Part shown: positions 40,944 to 49,866 of the stretch, piece by piece
Position numbering within the stretch: position 1 is the stretch's first letter
Layout: every line of letters starts with the position of its first letter
Origin: Escherichia phage GEP101
Sequence record: PQ036202
Strand: one strand, 5' to 3'
Length of the DNA: 64,000 nt
The notes under the pieces: model-generated
Seen by the model: the letters and a program-made list of their open reading frames with translations, nothing else
Told to the model about the DNA's origin: nothing
Databases searched by the model: none
Made by a program: the position numbers and the translations under genes

Positions 40944-41144
40944 ATGGCTGACTTCTGCAAAGATTGTGCTATCGAAATGTTCGGACGTGATACAGGGGAC
41001 TTAAAAGGTCTTATCACTGAAGATGACTTTAAAGCTGGCTATGCAATGCCAGTAATCTGTGAAGGTTGTGGATGTATCTGGGTAGACCACGAAGGACAAC
41101 GTGTAAAACCTTCAGAAGATAAAGAATCTTGGGAGAGATGCTAA
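40944..41144 (+). CDS. small Cys-rich protein
   Basis: CKDC...CEGCGC pattern; 66 aa. Confidence 0.4.
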   Translation: MADFCKDCAIEMFGRDTGDLKGLITEDDFKAGYAMPVICEGCGCIWVDHEGQRVKPSEDKESWERC

Positions 41145-41930
41145 ATGGGTATTGTAAAAATCATCAATGGGGATATCTTCTCCGCATTTGATAAAGGTAA
41201 GTTTGATATCATTGGTCACGGTTGCAACTGTATGAACTTAATGGGTGCAGGTATCGCTGACAAGATTTCTAAACTTTACCCAAAAGCATATGAGACTGAT
41301 ACAGAAGTTTATCTGTATGCAGGTGGTATAGGCCACAAACCCTGTGAAAATTTACTAGGTAATTTCTCTGTAGCACGTTTAGAACAAGGCCGTATAGCTA
41401 ACCTTTACACTCAGCTTAAGACTGGTAAAGATGCCCGATACAGTGCTTTAGAGTCATCTTTGAAACAGCTTAACAGATACTGTGAAGTCAATCAGTTGAA
41501 GAAAGTTGGGTTACCTATGATTGGCGCAGGTATCGGTGGGCTAGACCCTCAAGCCGTCACAGTTATCATTAATCAGGTGATGAAGAGCGTAGATGTTTAC
41601 CTGTATGTCTACGAGACAGAGATGTACAACGAGTTACACTCAGGTTGGAAGAACTACTGCGAACCGGAATACTTTGCAGGTGTAGTAACGTTCACAGACA
41701 ATACAGTTACCCTCTTCAGACGAAGAAAGGGTAAGGTACATCAAAGTAACCCTCCGGTTGAAAAGATGTCCCTAAGTAACGCTCTAGTTACCCACCTGTC
41801 GAAGAGCAATCACAGAATTGCCGTGACATTTGGCAGTGATGCAGATACGTATATCTATGCAAGAACTGATGAGGATGTTGAGGAAATTTTCTCTTCACAG
41901 GAAGTTACCTTCTTAGACGCAAAGAACTAA
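41145..41930 (+). CDS. macro-domain-like protein (putative ADP-ribose binding/processing)
   Basis: N-terminal INGDIF...DIIGHGCNCMNLMGAGIA resembles macro-domain core (GDIT...AIVNAAN...GGGV). Confidence 0.4.
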   Translation: MGIVKIINGDIFSAFDKGKFDIIGHGCNCMNLMGAGIADKISKLYPKAYETDTEVYLYAGGIGHKPCENLLGNFSVARLEQGRIANLYTQLKTGKDARYSALESSLKQLNRYCEVNQLKKVGLPMIGAGIGGLDPQAVTVIINQVMKSVDVYLYVYETEMYNELHSGWKNYCEPEYFAGVVTFTDNTVTLFRRRKGKVHQSNPPVEKMSLSNALVTHLSKSNHRIAVTFGSDADTYIYARTDEDVEEIFSSQEVTFLDAKN

Positions 41931-41989
41931 GAAACTCTGTAGGATATTCACAATAGACTAAGCCTTTCTTATCTGGTAAATTTTTCAGG

Positions 41990-42195
41990 TAAGGAGGGCT
42001 TTTTCATTTCAGGATTGTGCAGGTAGAGTTCTATAGAGAAATCTGTAGAGAGAATTTTGAACTCCAAAGAGAAAATTCATTTTCAAACTGTGCAGGTAAT
42101 CTCCAAAGAGCTTTTTCATTTTCAAAACGTGCAGAGAAAAATCAGGTCGGGCAAGAAAAATCATTTTAGAATTGTGCAGGTAGGTGGGTGCAGGT
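41990..42195. repeat. four ~40-bp direct repeats (TTTTCATTTTCAAA-CTGTGCAGGTA units)
   Basis: Repeated units beginning near 41990, 42060, 42102 and 42150, in a non-coding gap. Confidence 0.6.
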
Positions 42196-42359
42196 GGGGA
42201 TGTCGCCATTTCTCACAAGGCTACCACATCTGAAAAGAAAAGTCAACAGAAAAATTTGTAGCGGATTGAAAAATAATTCTTGATTGTAGTTCTGTTTTGT
42301 GGTAGTCGCGTGCGCCCGTTTCATTACAGTTTTTTGCCAAAATATTTTTAAAATTTTTC

Positions 42360-42452
42360 TTGACTATTCGAACGGGGTTATCTAGTATTTGCATCAACGG
42401 GGAGGAAATGACTTCCCCACTAAATAAAACCCTTAAACTAGGAGATTCTAAA
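42360..42452 (+). promoter_or_regulatory. promoter-hairpin-RBS cassette (type A, divergent copy)
   Basis: TTGACT-17-TAGTAT, GGGGAGG...CTTCCCC hairpin, conserved CCTTAAACTAGGAGATTCTAAAATG. Confidence 0.55.
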
Positions 42453-42644
42453 ATGGCATCAAGAAAAATCAAAGTTGGCGACGAGGTTAACGTAAAACAT
42501 GAATACTCTTACAAAATGTTAACTATTCGCTCTTACAAGGTTTATCAGGTGGAAGCTATCCACGAAGATGGAACATTTTCACTAAAAGGATATAGTGAAC
42601 GTTTCCCTGCTGAATTGTTCGAAAAATGGAGCACTAAAAAATGA
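42453..42644 (+). CDS. hypothetical small protein (cassette-array gene)
   Basis: Start reassigned to ATG 42453 behind conserved RBS. Confidence 0.55.
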   Translation: MASRKIKVGDEVNVKHEYSYKMLTIRSYKVYQVEAIHEDGTFSLKGYSERFPAELFEKWSTKK

Positions 42645-42847
42645 TTTACAGCCGTGAATTGATGGCCACAACTAACGTTAACACAAAGGTAAAACGTTTT
42701 TATATGCAAGTATGCGGCGCATGGCGTAGAATATCAGAATCTGACTATTGCAACTATGTAGAAACGGCTATTAATTCTAATTGCTATCTTACAAGAACTA
42801 CACGGAATTTTATAAAACATACAGCGGTTTACTATTACGATAAATAA
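42641..42847 (+). CDS. hypothetical small protein (cassette-array gene)
   Basis: ATGA start/stop overlap with previous gene. Confidence 0.45.
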   Translation: MIYSRELMATTNVNTKVKRFYMQVCGAWRRISESDYCNYVETAINSNCYLTRTTRNFIKHTAVYYYDK

Positions 42848-42935
42848 AAAGTACTTTACAAGGGGCTTAAAAGTTGATATCTTAAGCCCCAGAAAAAGAG
42901 CTTTACTAACAACCTTAAACTAGGAGATTCAAAAA
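42848..42935 (+). promoter_or_regulatory. type B intergenic element (palindrome + conserved RBS leader)
   Basis: AAAGTACTTTACA, 9-bp-stem palindrome GGGGCTTAA...TTAAGCCCC, AGAAAAAGAGCTTTA, CCTTAAACTAGGAGATTC; four copies. Confidence 0.5.
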
Positions 42936-43316
42936 ATGGCTTATCGTGCACCGAAATTCATCAACAAAGACAACTTTCGCAACGTACTGGAAAAGACACT
43001 TGATGAAAAATTTAACAGCAAATTGATTGTTGTTCACGCATTTAATTTCAAGTATGATATCAACGGGAATAAAATCAATCATTACACGGCAACAATGGTA
43101 GATGGTACACTATCAAGTGAAAAAGCCATACTGAATGCGCTTGCTGGACGTGGTAAAAACCTGATAAGATGTGATAAGAGACGTTATCAAGGCGGCGCAT
43201 ATGGTTATGATGATACTGTTTACCATCTTGAAAATATGGGCTATCAAGTAGAAAAAGCTGGAGTGTCGCAAATCATTGGTAGCGATGGTTATGTGACAAT
43301 CTTCAAAATTAAATAA
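42936..43316 (+). CDS. hypothetical protein (cassette-array gene)
   Basis: 126 aa behind type B element. Confidence 0.5.
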   Translation: MAYRAPKFINKDNFRNVLEKTLDEKFNSKLIVVHAFNFKYDINGNKINHYTATMVDGTLSSEKAILNALAGRGKNLIRCDKRRYQGGAYGYDDTVYHLENMGYQVEKAGVSQIIGSDGYVTIFKIK

Positions 43317-43405
43317 AAAGTACTTTACAGGGGGCTTATAAGGCTGTACAGTAAGCCCCAGATAAAGAGCTTTATCACTCAATCCTTAAACTAGGAGATT
43401 CAAAA
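43317..43405 (+). promoter_or_regulatory. type B intergenic element
   Basis: Copy 2 of palindrome + leader. Confidence 0.5.
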
Positions 43406-43918
43406 ATGAAAACTGTAGACGCTACCTTTGAAGTTGTAAAAGAAAAATTCACCATTATTTATGAGGCTGTTAATTGCTACGAAGCAAGCTATAATATGGA
43501 TAATTGGGAATTTACAAACAACCATAAAGGCGGGGTAACTATCAAAAATCCTAACTATCGACACAATGCATTTAAATATGCAATCCCTTTACATTACAGC
43601 CTAAAACAGCTTTCAAGTGACTATGCAAAACAAGGCCGTGAAAATCCATCGAAAGAGGCTTACATCAGCTTACAGAAAGAACTAGAAAGAGATTTAGAGG
43701 CTTCAGAATATTACCTATCTGCAAAAGTTGTAGACGCAAACGGGAAAACGGTTTTAGATAGTTTTTCTATTGGTTACGCTTTCGATTGGTGCTATAGCGA
43801 CGGCGTCGATTTAGCGGATAGACTAGAAGAGGAAGTGAGCAATTCAGGCGCAGAATCTGAAGTTATGGAACAATTAGAAGCCTTAAAAGATTCAGTGCTG
43901 AATATCTTTCAAAATTAA
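43406..43918 (+). CDS. hypothetical protein (cassette-array gene)
   Basis: 170 aa. Confidence 0.5.
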   Translation: MKTVDATFEVVKEKFTIIYEAVNCYEASYNMDNWEFTNNHKGGVTIKNPNYRHNAFKYAIPLHYSLKQLSSDYAKQGRENPSKEAYISLQKELERDLEASEYYLSAKVVDANGKTVLDSFSIGYAFDWCYSDGVDLADRLEEEVSNSGAESEVMEQLEALKDSVLNIFQN

Positions 43919-43934
43919 ATTAAGAGGAAACACC

Positions 43935-44267
43935 ATGTTAATGATGGGTATCACTGCAATCATCGCCATTATAGCACTTTACAAGGCTTATAGCGCATAT
44001 AATTTGGCAAGTAAGGCAATCACACAACAGGTTAGCGATAGCCTTGTAATGAGCTTTCTTGGGCGTTTAAGCGATGAGCAATTGAAACGGCTAGAAATGA
44101 GCTTCAGATTTCAATCAAAAACTTATCAAATCAGCGACATTTTCAAAGAGGATTTTCAGCTTGTCGATGATTATAACTCCCTGATAAATGCTTTAAATAT
44201 CAGTGACTTAAAAGATTATTACGCTGTAATTGTTCAAGAAATGAGCAAACGAAAACAAAACAGTTGA
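43935..44267 (+). CDS. hypothetical protein (cassette-array gene), N-terminal TM helix
   Basis: 110 aa, own AGAGGAAA RBS. Confidence 0.45.
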   Translation: MLMMGITAIIAIIALYKAYSAYNLASKAITQQVSDSLVMSFLGRLSDEQLKRLEMSFRFQSKTYQISDIFKEDFQLVDDYNSLINALNISDLKDYYAVIVQEMSKRKQNS

Positions 44268-44356: not shown

Positions 44357-44629
44357 ATGTATACTACTAACAATGGCCGTACTCTAAATGTCACTCTACG
44401 CCACTATGTAGACGGCGTGATGAACTTTGAGGATTTACAAGCGGAACAACATATTTTGGATTGGCAACTTGCTGGATTCCAAAAAACTGCTACGGGATAT
44501 GGTAAAAAGATTCCAACTAGTTGGAAAGTATACTATAAAGGCCGTTTGCGCAGAATTTATCAGGATGTTTGCAGCAATAGCGCATCAACCTACATCATAG
44601 TAAAAGGTAAAAAATTACACTTAGTATAG
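44357..44629 (+). CDS. hypothetical small protein (cassette-array gene)
   Basis: 90 aa. Confidence 0.5.
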   Translation: MYTTNNGRTLNVTLRHYVDGVMNFEDLQAEQHILDWQLAGFQKTATGYGKKIPTSWKVYYKGRLRRIYQDVCSNSASTYIIVKGKKLHLV

Positions 44630-44717
44630 AGTACTTTATAAGGGGCTTATAGTTCGATAAAGTAAGCCCCAGAAAAAGAGCTTTATCGCATTAACCTTAA
44701 ACTAGGAGATTCAAAAA
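44630..44717 (+). promoter_or_regulatory. type B intergenic element
   Basis: Copy 3. Confidence 0.5.
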
Positions 44718-45122
44718 ATGGCTATCAATAAACGCGAGTTATCAATTTTAAAAGCACGTTTGACCGTTAACCGGATTAATGTTATCACGTCAGCAGCACC
44801 GGATGAAATACTACAAAACATTATTGGGAAGATTCAAAGTGTTATCTTAGACGTTGAAAGCGTAAAAAACTCACTGATTGACGTTGCAGCAGGTATCACG
44901 CTAGAAGGTGCACAATATGAAATGGTGGACATGTTAGGTAAATCTAAGGTAATGAATAGGGAGTTAGATTTGAAAATGTTTCGTTTTGCTGTTAAAGTAT
45001 GGCTATCCGTCGAGTATGGCGCGAATTTTGCAATCGCTGACTTTTTCGCAACATGGTTACAACGTAATTTGACAAATCATGATTTTCGTGATATCTGCGA
45101 TGCAATTTATGCAGAAATCTAA
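44718..45122 (+). CDS. hypothetical protein (cassette-array gene)
   Basis: 134 aa. Confidence 0.5.
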   Translation: MAINKRELSILKARLTVNRINVITSAAPDEILQNIIGKIQSVILDVESVKNSLIDVAAGITLEGAQYEMVDMLGKSKVMNRELDLKMFRFAVKVWLSVEYGANFAIADFFATWLQRNLTNHDFRDICDAIYAEI

Positions 45123-45132
45123 AAATTTTTTA

Positions 45133-45227
45133 TTGACACTGATTTTTAGATATATTAAATTACTAATCAACGGGGAGGGAATGACCTCCCCCACTAAGTA
45201 AAGTCCTTAAACTAGGAGATTCTAAAA
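45133..45227 (+). promoter_or_regulatory. promoter-hairpin-RBS cassette (type A)
   Basis: Near-identical to 44264-44356. Confidence 0.55.
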
Positions 45228-45425
45228 ATGGCTATTATTAACGGTTTAAACATTGAAACTACTCACATCAAAGATATCAAAGTCGGCGATATAGTCCTTT
45301 TTCACGGCGTAGAAAAAACCGTCACTGTAAAGGATATCAAAGAGGATTCTTTCATGGGCCGGACTCTTTTCGGTGATTCGTATTGCTTAGGCTATCTTGC
45401 AGTTTTAAAAGTTGTCAAAAATTAA
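45228..45425 (+). CDS. hypothetical small protein (cassette-array gene)
   Basis: 65 aa. Confidence 0.45.
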   Translation: MAIINGLNIETTHIKDIKVGDIVLFHGVEKTVTVKDIKEDSFMGRTLFGDSYCLGYLAVLKVVKN

Positions 45426-45518
45426 ATAAAAAGTACTTTACAGGGGGCTTAAAAGCTGATATCTTAAGCCCTAGATAAAGAGCTTTATCACTCAATCCTT
45501 AAACTAGGAGATTCTAAA
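45426..45518 (+). promoter_or_regulatory. type B intergenic element
   Basis: Copy 4. Confidence 0.5.
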
Positions 45519-46061
45519 ATGAAATGCTTTCACGGTACTACTCAAGAAAATTTTATCAACCTGATTAATAACGGTGATAAACCATCAGGCGCATGGAATT
45601 GTTCGGATATGGACGGGAATTTTTACGTTTATCCAGAAAATAAAATCTATGGCGACGATGAGGAAGAGATAATCTCTGAAGGTATCCAGCAAGCTCTGGG
45701 CAATGCCGCTATCACCGCAGCTTTCCAGATGAAAACTCAAAATATTGTTATCTTAGAACTTGATATTCCAGAAGATGAGTTAAATGATGATTATTCTTGC
45801 GATAATATGTCGAACATGGCAAGTTTTACGGAATATTTCGATTTAAACTGGATTAAAAAGGTTTATACCACTGAATTTAATGCTATGTTTTCGCCTTTTT
45901 GTCTTCCTTCACTGGATAACCCAAATTTAAATTATATTGATGAGTCTCTGGAACTTCTCGCTAAAAGCGTTCAACAGTTCGACAGTATTCAAGTTTTTTG
46001 GGACATCATGGACACACTGACGGGAAACATCGCAGAAAGAGATTTAAAGGGCTTTTTCTAA
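45519..46061 (+). CDS. hypothetical protein (cassette-array gene)
   Basis: 180 aa, acidic. Confidence 0.5.
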   Translation: MKCFHGTTQENFINLINNGDKPSGAWNCSDMDGNFYVYPENKIYGDDEEEIISEGIQQALGNAAITAAFQMKTQNIVILELDIPEDELNDDYSCDNMSNMASFTEYFDLNWIKKVYTTEFNAMFSPFCLPSLDNPNLNYIDESLELLAKSVQQFDSIQVFWDIMDTLTGNIAERDLKGFF

Positions 46062-46360: not shown

Positions 46361-46451
46361 ACAAGCCGGATAAAAGTCTGTAAATTACTAATTAACGGGG
46401 AGGGGATGACCTTCCCCACTAAGTAAAGCCCTTAAACTAGGAGATTCAAAA
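46358..46451 (+). promoter_or_regulatory. promoter-hairpin-RBS cassette (type A variant)
   Basis: TAGACA-17-TAAATT, hairpin GGGGAGGGGATGACCTTCCCC, conserved RBS. Confidence 0.5.
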
Positions 46452-46793
46452 ATGGCTTATGTAACCGTAATCACCGACAAGGTTGGCTCATCTTGGTCAA
46501 CTCAAGTAAGCGATAAGATGACACCTATGCAGTGCCTAAAATACTTTGAGCAATGGAATAAAGGCGAAGGTGTCAGCCCCTTTCAAGTGATGCGTATCGT
46601 TCACACTGACAAGGAAGGGAATAAAACGGCCTTAAATAGTGAGTACTACGCAACCAGATTCGAAACTAGAAGTAAAACAATGAAACTTTTACGTGAATCC
46701 GGTTATACCCATATCGCCGCATTAATCTGGGATGACTTGCTAAAAAACCAACGTATCAGCTATGTAAAACCTGAAAAAATATTTATCAGCTAA
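46452..46793 (+). CDS. hypothetical protein (cassette-array gene)
   Basis: 113 aa. Confidence 0.5.
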   Translation: MAYVTVITDKVGSSWSTQVSDKMTPMQCLKYFEQWNKGEGVSPFQVMRIVHTDKEGNKTALNSEYYATRFETRSKTMKLLRESGYTHIAALIWDDLLKNQRISYVKPEKIFIS

Positions 46794-46850: not shown

Positions 46851-46923
46851 ATGTTGTTCGAGGGGGGTTTATCTAAAAGGGATTAACTTAAAAGATTCTT
46901 TATAGATAAACTTAAAAAATTGC

Positions 46924-47017
46924 TTGCAATCAGCTATCAAAACAAGTAAATTACTAATTAACGGGGAGGGGATGACCTTCCCCACTAAGTAAAGTCCTTA
47001 AACTAGGAGATTCAAAA
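46924..47017 (+). promoter_or_regulatory. promoter-hairpin-RBS cassette (type A variant)
   Basis: TTGCAA-17-TAAATT, hairpin, conserved RBS. Confidence 0.5.
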
Positions 47018-47548
47018 ATGAACAAGTTCAAAGCCATCAATTACATCCGCTCAAATAGTGTTATGTCAAAGCCTGTTAAAGACACCTATGAATTCCGTTG
47101 TAATGGTGTACACTTTGCAACCATCACCAAATCAGAAAACGGGGCTTATTACATTCATCGCCGTAATGTTGCAACCGTTGTAGTCTCTCATTTTATGCAA
47201 GCTGTCGCGGAACTCCTCCCGATGTTTTTAGGCCTTTACTTGGATGAGTGCAAAAACGTTCACAATCACGTTAAAAACCTTTTAAATAGTTATAAAATGG
47301 CTTATGAACGTTCTCTCAAGTCATTGAACAAGTTTTACAACGCACCTGAAAACACCATATCAATGGCCTATGCTGTAAATGGTGAAACAGTGAGTCTCTT
47401 TGAAGTGGAAAAAATCAAGCTGTACGATTTACTCCCTAGCGGTTACGCTAAAACCATCGGTGAAGGCTTAACGTTCAATATCAAGAACTTAGAAAAAACT
47501 TTAAAAGATATTGAAAAAGATATTGACGAGACAATCAAAAATCTATAA
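47018..47548 (+). CDS. hypothetical protein (cassette-array gene)
   Basis: 176 aa; last gene before non-coding repeat region. Confidence 0.5.
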   Translation: MNKFKAINYIRSNSVMSKPVKDTYEFRCNGVHFATITKSENGAYYIHRRNVATVVVSHFMQAVAELLPMFLGLYLDECKNVHNHVKNLLNSYKMAYERSLKSLNKFYNAPENTISMAYAVNGETVSLFEVEKIKLYDLLPSGYAKTIGEGLTFNIKNLEKTLKDIEKDIDETIKNL

Positions 47549-49272
47549 ATTGTCAATCAACGGGGCTAAAATAGCCCCAGATACCTTTTACAGCCCCTTT
47601 CCATATTGATTCGATAGAATCTATCTCATAGGGGCTTTTTTACGTCCTATCAAATCCCTTTCCCTTTCCCTTTCCAGAATCTATCCCACTAATTCGATAG
47701 AATCTATCTCATACCTTAAAAAGCAATAACTCTATAGCTTACTCTATAGCCTTTTATTAAATCAACTTAAATAAAAGCCAATACCCCCAGAAAGGGGATG
47801 GCCCATTTAAACGCTCTATAAAGCCCTATAACGGCCTTATTAACATAACTTAAGGGATTGCATTAACTCACCATTAAAAGCCCTTTATAAAGCTTTCTAG
47901 GGGCTTAAAAGAGCCTTAAAAGAATCTTATAAGGGTGTAAGCTTTATCATCTCGTTAGTTATCTTATTGGCATTGTTACAATTCCTAGTGAACTACTAAA
48001 AAGGGCTTGCTAGTGTCTTAAAAGTATGTTATAGGGGCTATAAAGTTGCTTAAAAGTAGCTTAAAAGTTACTTCAAAGTTACTTCAAAGTTACGTAAATG
48101 CTAGCCCCCTTAACAATTTCTTAACAAATCCTACAAAGTTATGCTTATTAGAGACTTGTTAGCAACTTGTTAGCCCCTTGTTAAATCTCTGTTAAAACCA
48201 TGTAAAGCCTTGTAAGAACCTTTGACATAGCCTTTAAAGCTCCTGAAAAGCCCTATAAAGAGCTTTCTACATAGTTGGGGTGCAATTACTAGGGAGAGAC
48301 TAAAAAGGGCTTATAAAGAGCTATAGAGAGCTTTTAAGAGGGCTATTTAAAGAATCACTAAGAGGGAAAGGGAACGATAAGAAAGAGATAGTGACCATGT
48401 TAATGGCTTGTTAAAAAGTTTAAACACTTGTTAGAAACTTGTTAATTATCTTAACAAAATAACTCTTAAAAATTAACTTCTTAACTCTTGTTAGTCATCT
48501 GTTAAGACTCTGTAAAGACCATGTAGCAACTGTTAAGGAACTGTTACATCCTTGTTAGTTCTGTTGAGAATCTGTTAAGACCTTTGAAGAGTTGTTAAGA
48601 AGATGTGAGAACTGTTAAGAGATTGTTAATGATATTTTAAAATTTTGCAAAGGGGGTGTTACAGGGATGTTAAGGGCTACCAAGCAGATATACATCTTTT
48701 ACAGATATTTTTGAGTTCCTTCAAAGACCCTAAAAAATGACTTGATAGTCCTATTTTATAAAAATTTTAAAATTCTGAATAATTACCTATACAGTCTTCT
48801 AAAAATACAGGCATAAACAGGCTTATAAGATACCTTGTTAATACCGTGTTAGACCTTGTGAGATAAGGTCTGCAAAGATATTCCTGTTAAGTTTGTTAAA
48901 ACAGTCTATATAGAGGCTTAGTAATACCTAGTGAACACCTATAGAGGGTAACATAGCTGACATAGAGATTAAGAGGTGTATAGGGGCTTCTAAGAGGTTA
49001 TAGAGAGATGGTTAAGGTGATTGTATAGGTTGTTAAGAAGGCTTGTTAGAAGAGTGTTTAGAAGGGCTATACAGAGGGGCTATTAAGACCACTAGATAGA
49101 TACTAAGATACTATATAGTACTATATAACTATATATAGAGAGTAAGCTTAAGAAGGTTGTTAAGAAGGGTAGATATTTTTATTCACATATGATGGTGACC
49201 CAGAGGTTGGGACAACCGATGAAATTTTATAAAAATTAAAAAGCCCCCAATTAAGGAGGCTCTTAAGATATT
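47549..49272. repeat. 1.7-kb ORF-free region with arrays of ~11-bp phased short motifs
   Basis: No ORF of 60 aa or more on any frame; TGTTAAG/TGTTAGC-type runs at ~11-bp spacing (48150-48200, 48400-48650), TATAAAGAG/TAAGAGG runs (48240-48360, 48910-49140), 11-bp x5 repeat at 48030-48100, 21-bp direct repeat at ~47608/47693, (CCCTTT)3. Confidence 0.7.
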
Positions 49273-49866
49273 TTAAATCAGTGTTTCCAGAACTGTCTTC
49301 AGTGATGACTTGGTTGTCTGATAAAAATGAGTAAATCCATTGTTGTTATCGAATACCTGCATCATGATGTCATCTCCCTTGATTGGGTACACTCGGATAT
49401 CATAGTGGAACCCATTAAAGACAGCAGAACCATTACAGAATAAACTAAAGTCATCCACTGAGATATACTCTTCATGTCCTGTGATTTTTATACAGATGCC
49501 TTTACTCGGTCTCTTAGGGTTAATATCTTCCATCACAGACATATTCTGTCCACCAAGAGATACCATAGTGACTACTTTACGGTTCTTCTGTTTAAAGTAC
49601 ATCTTAACTTTCTGTAAAGTGTCTTCATAGAACGGATACGACTTCTCTACAAAGATTCCTTCAAGTGGGTCTTTACCATTTTTAACTTCTCTGTAACCCC
49701 GTACTGCAAAAACAATCTGTTTTAATCTGTCAAGACTTTCTTCAGAGAGTGCTTCTTGAGCATCACTCCAATCAAGGACTAGGTAGTTACCTTCAACTTC
49801 TTTTAAGTTATCTTTTTCCATATCTATCACACCATTATCGTAAAACTTGGTAAGCTGGAACTGCAA
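49273..49866 (-). CDS. hypothetical protein
   Basis: 197-aa ORF, last gene of minus-strand block. Confidence 0.45.
   Translation of the reverse strand: MQFQLTKFYDNGVIDMEKDNLKEVEGNYLVLDWSDAQEALSEESLDRLKQIVFAVRGYREVKNGKDPLEGIFVEKSYPFYEDTLQKVKMYFKQKNRKVVTMVSLGGQNMSVMEDINPKRPSKGICIKITGHEEYISVDDFSLFCNGSAVFNGFHYDIRVYPIKGDDIMMQVFDNNNGFTHFYQTTKSSLKTVLETLI

Follow-up and report, generated by a model that had tools for sequence, protein, structure and literature searches.

A single-locus array of ~40-bp direct repeats, conserved across Ounavirinae upstream of a small early-gene module, is consistent with a DNA-level protein-binding array

We found that the intergenic gap between a macro-domain gene and the first small gene of a Felix O1-like phage genome carries four strong and two degenerate copies of a ~41-bp unit, all in the same orientation. 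The array is the most strongly constrained non-coding element of the region. Because the order and spacing of the units are kept across the subfamily, we read the array as a protein-binding control element, and its conservation, its confinement to one locus and its freedom from RNA and coding signatures fit a DNA-level protein-binding array. The reading we prefer, with a probability of about 0.4, is that the units are cis-acting sites for one sequence-specific protein that would control P1 and P2, the two promoters with which the early-gene module begins.

The window, that is, the whole stretch of 64,000 nucleotides analysed (Escherichia phage GEP101, record PQ036202), is a circularised genome of a Felixounavirus (Ounavirinae; Felix O1-like myovirus), since the 241 phage records matched by positions 41000-44000 in a megablast search are nearly all Felix O1-like myoviruses of Salmonella, Escherichia, Shigella and Citrobacter. 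The array is a 190-bp non-coding stretch inside a 430-bp gap, with the macro-domain gene on one side and the first small gene on the other; with 430-520 bp, the gap is unusually long, and the Felix O1 genome is 90.6% coding (PMC3185647). The features of this region, in order of position, are as follows.

41145-41930, + strand: macro-domain gene (ORF list; Pfam Macro, E = 1.2e-7).
41960-42011, + strand: intrinsic terminator of the macro gene, a 17-pair stem followed by TTTCATTTCA (terminator scan).
41985-42025, + strand: unit R1, 'T-type', GCTTTTT-TCATTTC-AGGAT-TGTGCAGGTA; core 67% invariant across four genera.
42027-42057, + strand: decayed unit R1b, GAGAAATCTGTAGAGAG; in the alignment its counterpart is the second unit of Erwinia phage phiEa21-4, which is intact.
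42058-42098, + strand: unit R2, 'A-type', CTCCAAAGAG-AAAAT-TCATTTT-CAAAC-TGTGCAGGTA; core 75% invariant.
42097-42137, + strand: unit R3, 'T-type', CTCCAAAGAG-CTTTT-TCATTTT-CAAAA-CGTGCAGAG; core 75% invariant.
42142-42182, + strand: unit R4, 'A-type', GGGCAAG-AAAAA-TCATTTT-AGAAT-TGTGCAGGTA (motif match and direct-repeat search).
42184-42235, no strand: variable spacer with two alleles (alignment; low per-column conservation).
42218-42246, - strand: promoter-like site directed towards the repeats, AAATTTTTCTG-TTGACT-17-TGG-TAGCCT (from the sequence and the conservation profile).
42228-42263, + strand: degenerate unit R5, GAAAAGTCAACAGAAAAATTTGTAGCGG, the fourth copy of direct-repeat family D1 (62%).
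42280-42308, + strand: candidate promoter P1, TTGATT-17-TG-G-TAGTCG (from the sequence and the alignment).
42319-42358, no strand: AT-rich tract (85% A+T) between P1 and P2 (composition scan; matches to the UP consensus).
42360-42388, + strand: promoter P2, TTGACT-17-TAGTAT, of the first small early gene (promoter scan).

The preliminary description had placed the repeats between a macro-domain gene and a first cassette promoter, and both landmarks were confirmed: the upstream gene carries a Macro domain in Pfam, and P2 is a sigma-70-like promoter. The macro-domain gene lies directly upstream of the array in all relatives examined, the divergent phages L016 and L025 included, and annotations of relatives call it 'phosphatase', 'O-acetyl-ADP-ribose deacetylase' or Tk.4-like. 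Downstream of the array follows a series of small genes, each with a promoter of its own. All ten small downstream proteins fall into PHROG families of unknown function, among them the product of the first small early gene (42453-42644), and a Pfam scan of nine of the ten returned no match. This module spans ~5 kb at the right end of the genome and is transcribed towards that end.

The position of that end was taken from relatives. The GenBank record of Ro111lw carries the same 613 bp at its start and end, in agreement with the terminal repeat reported for this phage (PMC6454146). The terminal repeat of UAB_Phi87 was determined experimentally, by Bal31, as 608 bp (PMC4837284), that of Pr103Blw is predicted by PhageTerm to be 581 bp, and PhageTerm predictions in relatives range from 581 to 613 bp. 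By homology to the 613-bp repeat of Ro111lw, the direct terminal repeat of the window occupies 48104-48681. It follows from this placement that ~6.5 kb (~7% of the genome) lie between the array and the physical right end; the array is ~5.9 kb upstream of the terminal repeat, with the small-gene module only between the two. The same mapping rules out that the array is itself a physical genome end or packaging site, the terminal repeat being ~6 kb off.

Both a reading of the sequence and a direct-repeat search confirmed that ~40-bp direct repeats are present. The four units of the preliminary description lie where it had put them, but they are unevenly spaced (73, 39 and 45 bp) and are accompanied by two degenerate copies. 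Direct-repeat family D1 comprises 42062-42095, 42101-42134 (82%), 42146-42179 (71%) and a weak copy at 42228-42261 (62%), and family D2 contributes 42004-42026. In the four strong units the T of TCATTT stands at 42004, 42077, 42116 and 42161, always on the + strand, and the unit core can be written TCATTTY-N5-YGTGCA(GGTA). At zero mismatches, TCATTTY-N5-YGTGCA occurs four times in the window, all on the + strand and within a span of 175 bp; all other matches are scattered and need two mismatches. Likewise, the complete 87,026-bp genome of a relative (PP948675) contains exactly four occurrences, all inside the homologous array, against a chance expectation of ~0.02 per genome calculated from base composition. 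The window holds three exact copies of the string TGTGCAGGTA, those in R1, R2 and R4.

In a profile of 95 distinct unit instances, positions from about -19 to +21 relative to the T of TCATTT carry information, which gives a unit of ~41 bp. Two fully conserved blocks (2.0-bit positions) flank a weakly constrained gap of 5 nt, so that the core is asymmetric and bipartite, and an A4/T4 tract at -5 to -2 is dimorphic. The two flavours alternate along the array, R1 and R3 being T-type and R2 and R4 A-type, and the same alternation is seen in Erwinia phage phiEa21-4. The 73-bp gap between R1 and R2 contains the decayed unit R1b. R5 is strongly conserved, with at least 90% per column in 30 sequences, and ~17 bp separate it from the -35 hexamer of P1 downstream; its counterpart in phiEa21-4 is the variant unit TCATTTTCAGCCTTGTAAG. 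Adjacent units are 37-45 bp apart (~3.5-4.3 helical turns) and alternate units 73-84 bp (~7-8 turns). Tandem Repeats Finder reported no repeat in the array, because the copies are just 62-82% alike. The inverted-repeat pairs found in a scan of 41500-43000 are imperfect (70-92% complementary) and none of them pairs units with one another; the sole pair with both arms near the array is I3 (41982-42001 and 42217-42236, 70% complementary).

Conservation in related genomes, which the preliminary description had proposed as a check, was found in four Ounavirinae genera, the opposite of the outcome it had named as unfavourable. A blastn search with the 430-bp gap matched 288 phage records; in 110 of these the gap is 95-99% identical, as compared with mostly 90-95% for the 3-kb surroundings. 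In 26 of 28 loci, conservation is higher in the array than in the adjacent macro gene (median difference, +2.7 points), and in Suspvirus the array is 86% identical as compared with 74% for the macro gene. The R2-R4 segment is among the few stretches that can be aligned at the DNA level between Felixounavirus and the Erwinia Kolesnikvirus. In an alignment of seven sequences from four genera, 67-75% of the core columns of R1-R3 are invariant, in comparison with 7-27% of those in the spacers.

The order, orientation and spacing of the units are stereotyped in the four genera, with spacings of 73/39/45 bp in Felixounavirus and Suspvirus, 75-77/39-41/45 bp in Mooglevirus and 37/37/39 bp in Kolesnikvirus (phiEa21-4). 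In the very divergent 88-kb metagenomic phage L025 the units are spaced 36/110/38/38 and again follow a macro-domain gene. The spacer between R3 and R4 differs wholly in sequence between lineages (AGAGAAAAATCAGG, AGACCCCGCTCAGG or AGATGCAGTTGGAC), and the 45-bp spacing is kept. The relative positions of the sites are thus held more strictly than the intervening sequence, which speaks for a binding array. Pattern scans of viral, bacterial-genome and metagenome collections found no homologous array outside Ounavirinae; all contigs with such an array resemble Ounavirinae genomes in size and/or blastn similarity.

The elements around the units share a common layout in all genera: terminator, units, spacer, variant unit, P1, AT-rich tract and P2. 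The 3' arm and T-run (GGAGGGCTTTTTCATTT) of the macro-gene terminator overlap R1. The variable spacer has in the window the allele GGTGGGTGCAGGTGGGG..., with a partial extra GTGCAGGT, and in Felix O1a, Suspvirus and Mooglevirus a polypyrimidine (C-rich) tract of ~50 nt. P1 and the minus-strand promoter are predictions from the DNA sequence. The former has the counterpart TTGACT...TGCTATGTG in Mooglevirus; the latter is missing from the list of a consensus promoter scan, and its -10 hexamer is poor in the C-rich allele. The AT-rich tract, 135 bp from R4, is one of 10 places in the window with such an A+T content (top 0.13% of 40-bp windows), and similar tracts precede other cassette promoters; it forms the UP-like element of P2 and might also serve as an unwinding element.

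According to the reading that we prefer, the four strong and two degenerate same-orientation sites would bind one sequence-specific protein, which most likely belongs to the numerous small phage proteins that are uncharacterised. The occupied sites would assemble a phased nucleoprotein complex directly upstream of P1 and P2, which would switch the ~5-kb module of small early genes by shutting off or boosting the two promoters, and which could also insulate the module from read-through of the macro-gene operon. That a protein binds, which protein it is and what regulation results we infer from the features described above. The proposal in the preliminary description that the repeats are iterons or sites for a regulator of the downstream array agrees with the conservation, the single locus and the lack of RNA or coding signals; no binder, however, could be recognised, and neither Pfam and PHROG searches of the flanking proteins nor the annotation of relatives revealed a regulator or initiator gene. 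Two observations speak against promoter control. The other cassette promoters of the module are without the motif, so that the array alone cannot control the whole module, and the strong sites lie 100-280 bp upstream of P1, which is a long way for a simple operator. Known repressor and activator arrays, moreover, are not usually spaced by 37-45 bp (~3.5-4.3 turns). In common with the lambda OL/OR, P1 C1 and phi29 p4 operators, the array is a cluster of specific sites just upstream of early promoters, and its units are asymmetric like the P1 C1 operators. Unlike these multi-site operators, it consists of 4-6 direct repeats at 37-45 bp that reach 280 bp upstream of the promoter, it has no recognised cognate regulator, and the phage is virulent.

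Felix O1-like phages are classic typing phages of Salmonella and are widely used in therapy and biocontrol. Neither where they start replication nor what logic governs their terminal small-gene module is known, and the same goes for the temporal control of transcription, for which Whichard et al. recognised no RNA-polymerase modifiers (PMC3185647); a site for a dedicated regulator would close a genuine gap here. The array offers a concrete handle on this, as a short probe for the binder and as a small deletion target, leading towards an early-gene switch or an origin. In the literature searched we found no earlier description of these repeats, and a search for iterons in papers on Felix O1 was without matches. 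The repeats of 24 bp or longer that the Felix O1 genome paper lists, some of them in the cassette region, do not include those of the array (PMC3185647). In the accessible part of the PhageMaP report on Bas63, no intergenic result is given for the homologous region. The array thus appears to be an iteron-like binding-site array, a familiar type, with unusually deep conservation.

Sequence alone is compatible with a regulator site as well as with origin iterons, and the two have to be weighed against each other. The units could serve a phage initiator as iterons, or act as an architectural landing pad, with transcription from P1 into the AT-rich tract opening the duplex for the T7-like primase-helicase and polymerase. 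The primary origin of T7 combines a promoter with AT-rich DNA, and lambda and plasmid origins combine iterons with AT-rich DNA. The array resembles the iterons of lambda ori, P1 oriR/incA, R6K and T4 oriE in having 4-6 asymmetric repeats of one orientation with a core of ~20 bp in a single cluster per genome, A/T tracts embedded in each unit, a promoter and an 85% A+T tract within 140 bp, and conserved sites with free spacers. It is also better conserved than the flanking gene, and its intergenic gap is strikingly long for so densely coding a genome (PMC3185647). On the other hand, no cognate Rep/O-like initiator gene is recognisable among the flanking proteins (Pfam, PHROG) or in the annotation of one full relative genome, and the T7-like replisome genes (polymerase A, primase/helicase, exonuclease and ligase), ~30 kb away, need no iteron-binding initiator. 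The units are spaced by 37-45 bp, as compared with the ~21-22 bp (about two helical turns) or the multiples of ~10.5 bp of classical iterons. The AT-rich tract is not unique in the window, as noted above, and no GC-skew inflection is seen at 42 kb, although the skew follows gene orientation here and is thus uninformative on the origin. We consider an origin unlikely, and control of the early promoters is slightly favoured over it, since R5 abuts P1, the T7-like replisome lies ~30 kb off and does without an initiator, and Whichard et al. describe the timing of Felix O1 transcription as unexplained. By analogy with T5, the array might instead be a DNA-entry or boundary signal resembling the T5 injection stop signal, at which a bound protein would pause or gate the entry of the remaining genome; it would then mark the inner edge of a segment, made up of the small genes of host-takeover-like type and the terminal repeat, that would enter or be expressed first. 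In T5 the first-step-transfer segment makes up 7.9% of the genome, and the untranslated repeat region that serves as its stop signal exceeds the adjacent ORFs in conservation (10.1101/866236). The array is likewise untranslated and better conserved than the neighbouring gene, and, given the placement of the terminal repeat at 48104-48681, it is separated from the right end by ~6.5 kb (~7%), a stretch in which the only genes are small ones of unknown function. In untranslated repeat region 3 of T5 as in the array, non-coding repeats lie ~7-8% in from a genome end and border, on the inner side, a group of small host-takeover-type genes that adjoins a direct terminal repeat. However, the T5 region, with 1.2 kb, nested inverted repeats, palindromes and eight DnaA boxes, is far more complex than the array, which has direct repeats only and no DnaA boxes in its units; the single one-mismatch DnaA-box match in 41950-42400, at 42209, is at chance level. 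To our knowledge, neither two-step injection nor right-end-first entry has a precedent in Felix O1-like phages or other Ounavirinae, and we regard such a gate as improbable. A broader view would make the array an Ounavirinae-specific genome-organising signal bound by a small phage protein, that is, either a Felix O1-like origin of ~40-bp phased units combined with a T7-like replisome or a T5-like gate that sets off the ~7% terminal host-takeover segment that would enter or be expressed first. This may be the case, but we hold it to be doubtful.

The remaining readings place the function in RNA or in a protein. If the array were transcribed, for example from the minus-strand promoter-like site (TTGACT-17-TGGTAGCCT) that faces it, the RNA might mimic ToxI or antiQ against ToxN/AbiQ or act as another small RNA. 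Phage-encoded pseudo-ToxI is a known means of evading abortive infection (PMC3475682). With 37-45 nt, the units are of a length seen in ToxI repeats, they contain A-rich AAAAU motifs, and one of four bacterial-genome matches to a two-unit motif was a genuine ToxN locus (Pfam ToxN, E = 4.7e-47), the antitoxin repeats of which carry the reverse complement of the motif. We ascribe this match to chance, because a pattern of two spaced copies selects tandem repeats of any origin. The same type of scan in metagenomes gave ~23 unrelated tandem repeats, coding repeats included, and in one case the repeat array was flanked by a fragment read as a eukaryotic beta-galactosidase-like coding sequence. No DNA similar to the array was found in 5,426 E. 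coli genomes or 72,556 plasmids. The array was compared with antitoxin arrays of Salmonella, E. coli, Klebsiella, Enterobacter, E. albertii, Clostridium, Lactococcus and Lactobacillus plasmids, most of which, comprising enterobacterial ToxI and antiQ-type repeats of lactic acid bacteria, share the signature GGTGA...ACC...AAGTG. This signature is missing from the units on both strands. Genuine arrays are near-exact with a fixed period, whereas the units are 62-82% alike and spaced by 73/39/45; and in place of the promoter-array-terminator layout of type III antitoxins, the terminator on the + strand precedes the array and no terminator follows it on the minus strand. Folding of the array was no better than that of shuffled sequences (z = +0.88 and +1.54 for the two strands), consensus folds of seven diverse sequences were weak with an unfavourable covariation term on both strands, and Rfam gave no match on either strand at E values up to 10. 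A known RNA family or structured RNA is ruled out by these results, as is a tRNA-like element, no tRNA being found at the array. The array thus resembles ToxI, antiQ and pseudo-ToxI as a set of short-period (~36-40 nt) repeats with A-rich motifs in a phage non-coding region, but it differs from ToxI and antiQ in its divergent and unequal copies and in lacking their signature, an Rfam match, a predicted structure and their layout. After the comparison with genuine enterobacterial and Firmicute arrays and the metagenome scan, we reject the type III antitoxin mimic, and an RNA function of the array is very improbable.

Several simpler identities were also examined for the units. None matches the consensus of IHF, DnaA, CRP, Fis, LexA, Fur or Lrp, so that a site for a known host factor among those tested is ruled out; the A-type units bear a weak, UP-element-like resemblance with three mismatches. 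A dispersed class of middle or late promoters is rejected because the motif is confined to one locus, and it shows no -35/-10 geometry.

Least credible of all is the reading of the array as a small minus-strand gene that encodes an internally repeated peptide, like the Moogle gp115 annotated in some Mooglevirus and Suspvirus records. Many genomes do have a minus-strand ORF of 66-117 aa over the array, which is annotated in several records, and two of the spacings, 39 and 45 bp, are divisible by three. However, R1, which is conserved like R2-R4, is out of frame with them because of the 73-bp spacing, and the units stand in differing frames in the Kolesnikvirus (37/37/39) and some Mooglevirus (41) arrays. 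Three Mooglevirus loci retain just 33 aa of the ORF, the N-terminus of which also varies from allele to allele, and the ORF overlaps promoter P1. The variable positions form a contiguous block of 5 nt, not every third base. The minus-strand ORF is therefore ruled out on grounds of frame and conservation, and the ORFs annotated across the array in several GenBank records are probably spurious, which may serve as a warning to annotators of these genomes.

The spacer that follows R4, the last of the repeat units R1-R4 (window 42184-42235), was found in two alleles. The window allele consists of a G-rich segment with an additional partial GTGCAGGT, and the allele of Felix O1a, Suspvirus and Mooglevirus is a C-rich polypyrimidine tract of ~50 nt on the + strand, possibly rut-like or prone to triplex formation. 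A promoter-like site on the minus strand lies across the end of this spacer, and GenBank records of Mooglevirus and Suspvirus carry minus-strand annotations over the array and P1, the candidate + strand promoter 3' of it:

42218-42246, minus strand: promoter-like site, AAATTTTTCTG-TTGACT-17-TGG-TAGCCT, directed leftwards into the repeat array
L007 783-1136, minus strand: annotated hypothetical protein over array and P1 (MK562505)
L009 898-1191, minus strand: annotated hypothetical protein over array and P1 (ON528731)
L010 879-1187, minus strand: annotated hypothetical protein over array and P1 (MH791413)

The -35/UP part of the promoter-like site is strictly conserved and near-identical to its counterpart in the cassette promoters; a good -10 hexamer is present in the window-type allele only. 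The predicted transcript would start 1-3 nt 5' of the ATG of a 66-aa minus-strand ORF (42209-42009). The hypothetical proteins annotated across the array and P1 in the Mooglevirus and Suspvirus records are probably spurious ORFs.

Further downstream, the small early genes of the window are separated by repeated modules, each composed of a terminator and a promoter:

42845-42935, 43305-43410, 44626-44720, 45156-45230, 45418-45525, 46380-46454 and 46913-47034: inter-cassette modules, terminator + promoter

These modules showed 74-84% conservation even in comparison with Mooglevirus and Kolesnikvirus, and are probably sites at which recombination shuffles the cassettes. Part of them was already recorded in Felix O1 by Whichard et al. 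(PMC3185647).

The segment 48104-48681 is the counterpart of the direct terminal repeat of Felixounavirus (581-613 bp), and the physical genome ends therefore lie inside the window. This non-coding segment opens with TTAACA repeats (GCCCCCTTAACAATTTCTTAACAA) and is dense in the octamers CTTGTTAG and CTGTTAAG, frequently at 11-bp spacing; half of the 16 window matches to CTTGTTAR fall inside it. These signals may serve packaging or replication. A TTAACA repeat run resembling the start of this terminal repeat was also observed in L025 (IMGVR_UViG_3300045988_063805, ~767-1000), a divergent 88-kb phage showing no similarity to the window by blastn in the array region, where it directly follows five A-type units of ~37 bp each, located 3' of a short macro-domain gene.

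Two other features were recorded in the window, the former with 85-87% identity, in reverse orientation, to the pre-array terminator of Erwinia Kolesnikvirus phages:

49229-49281: terminator-like sequence, AAAAAGCCCCCAATTAAGGAGGC
59230-63798, + strand: cluster of 23 tRNA genes

Two further repeat loci lie in MAGs. L042 6583-7190 (CAJGCP010000022, Acetatifactor) is a type III toxin-antitoxin locus, in which two 37-nt repeats and a terminator precede the ToxN gene; its antitoxin repeats share the motif TGCACR-N5-AAAATGA by chance with the phage units in reverse complement. L040 1290-1450 (Ignavibacteria, CAVVVP010000010) contains five intergenic 32-bp tandem repeats (GGGGTCAATCGGCTCATTTTCCATTYGTGCAA) immediately 5' of a Mu Gam-like gene, a setting that looks like a Mu-type prophage.
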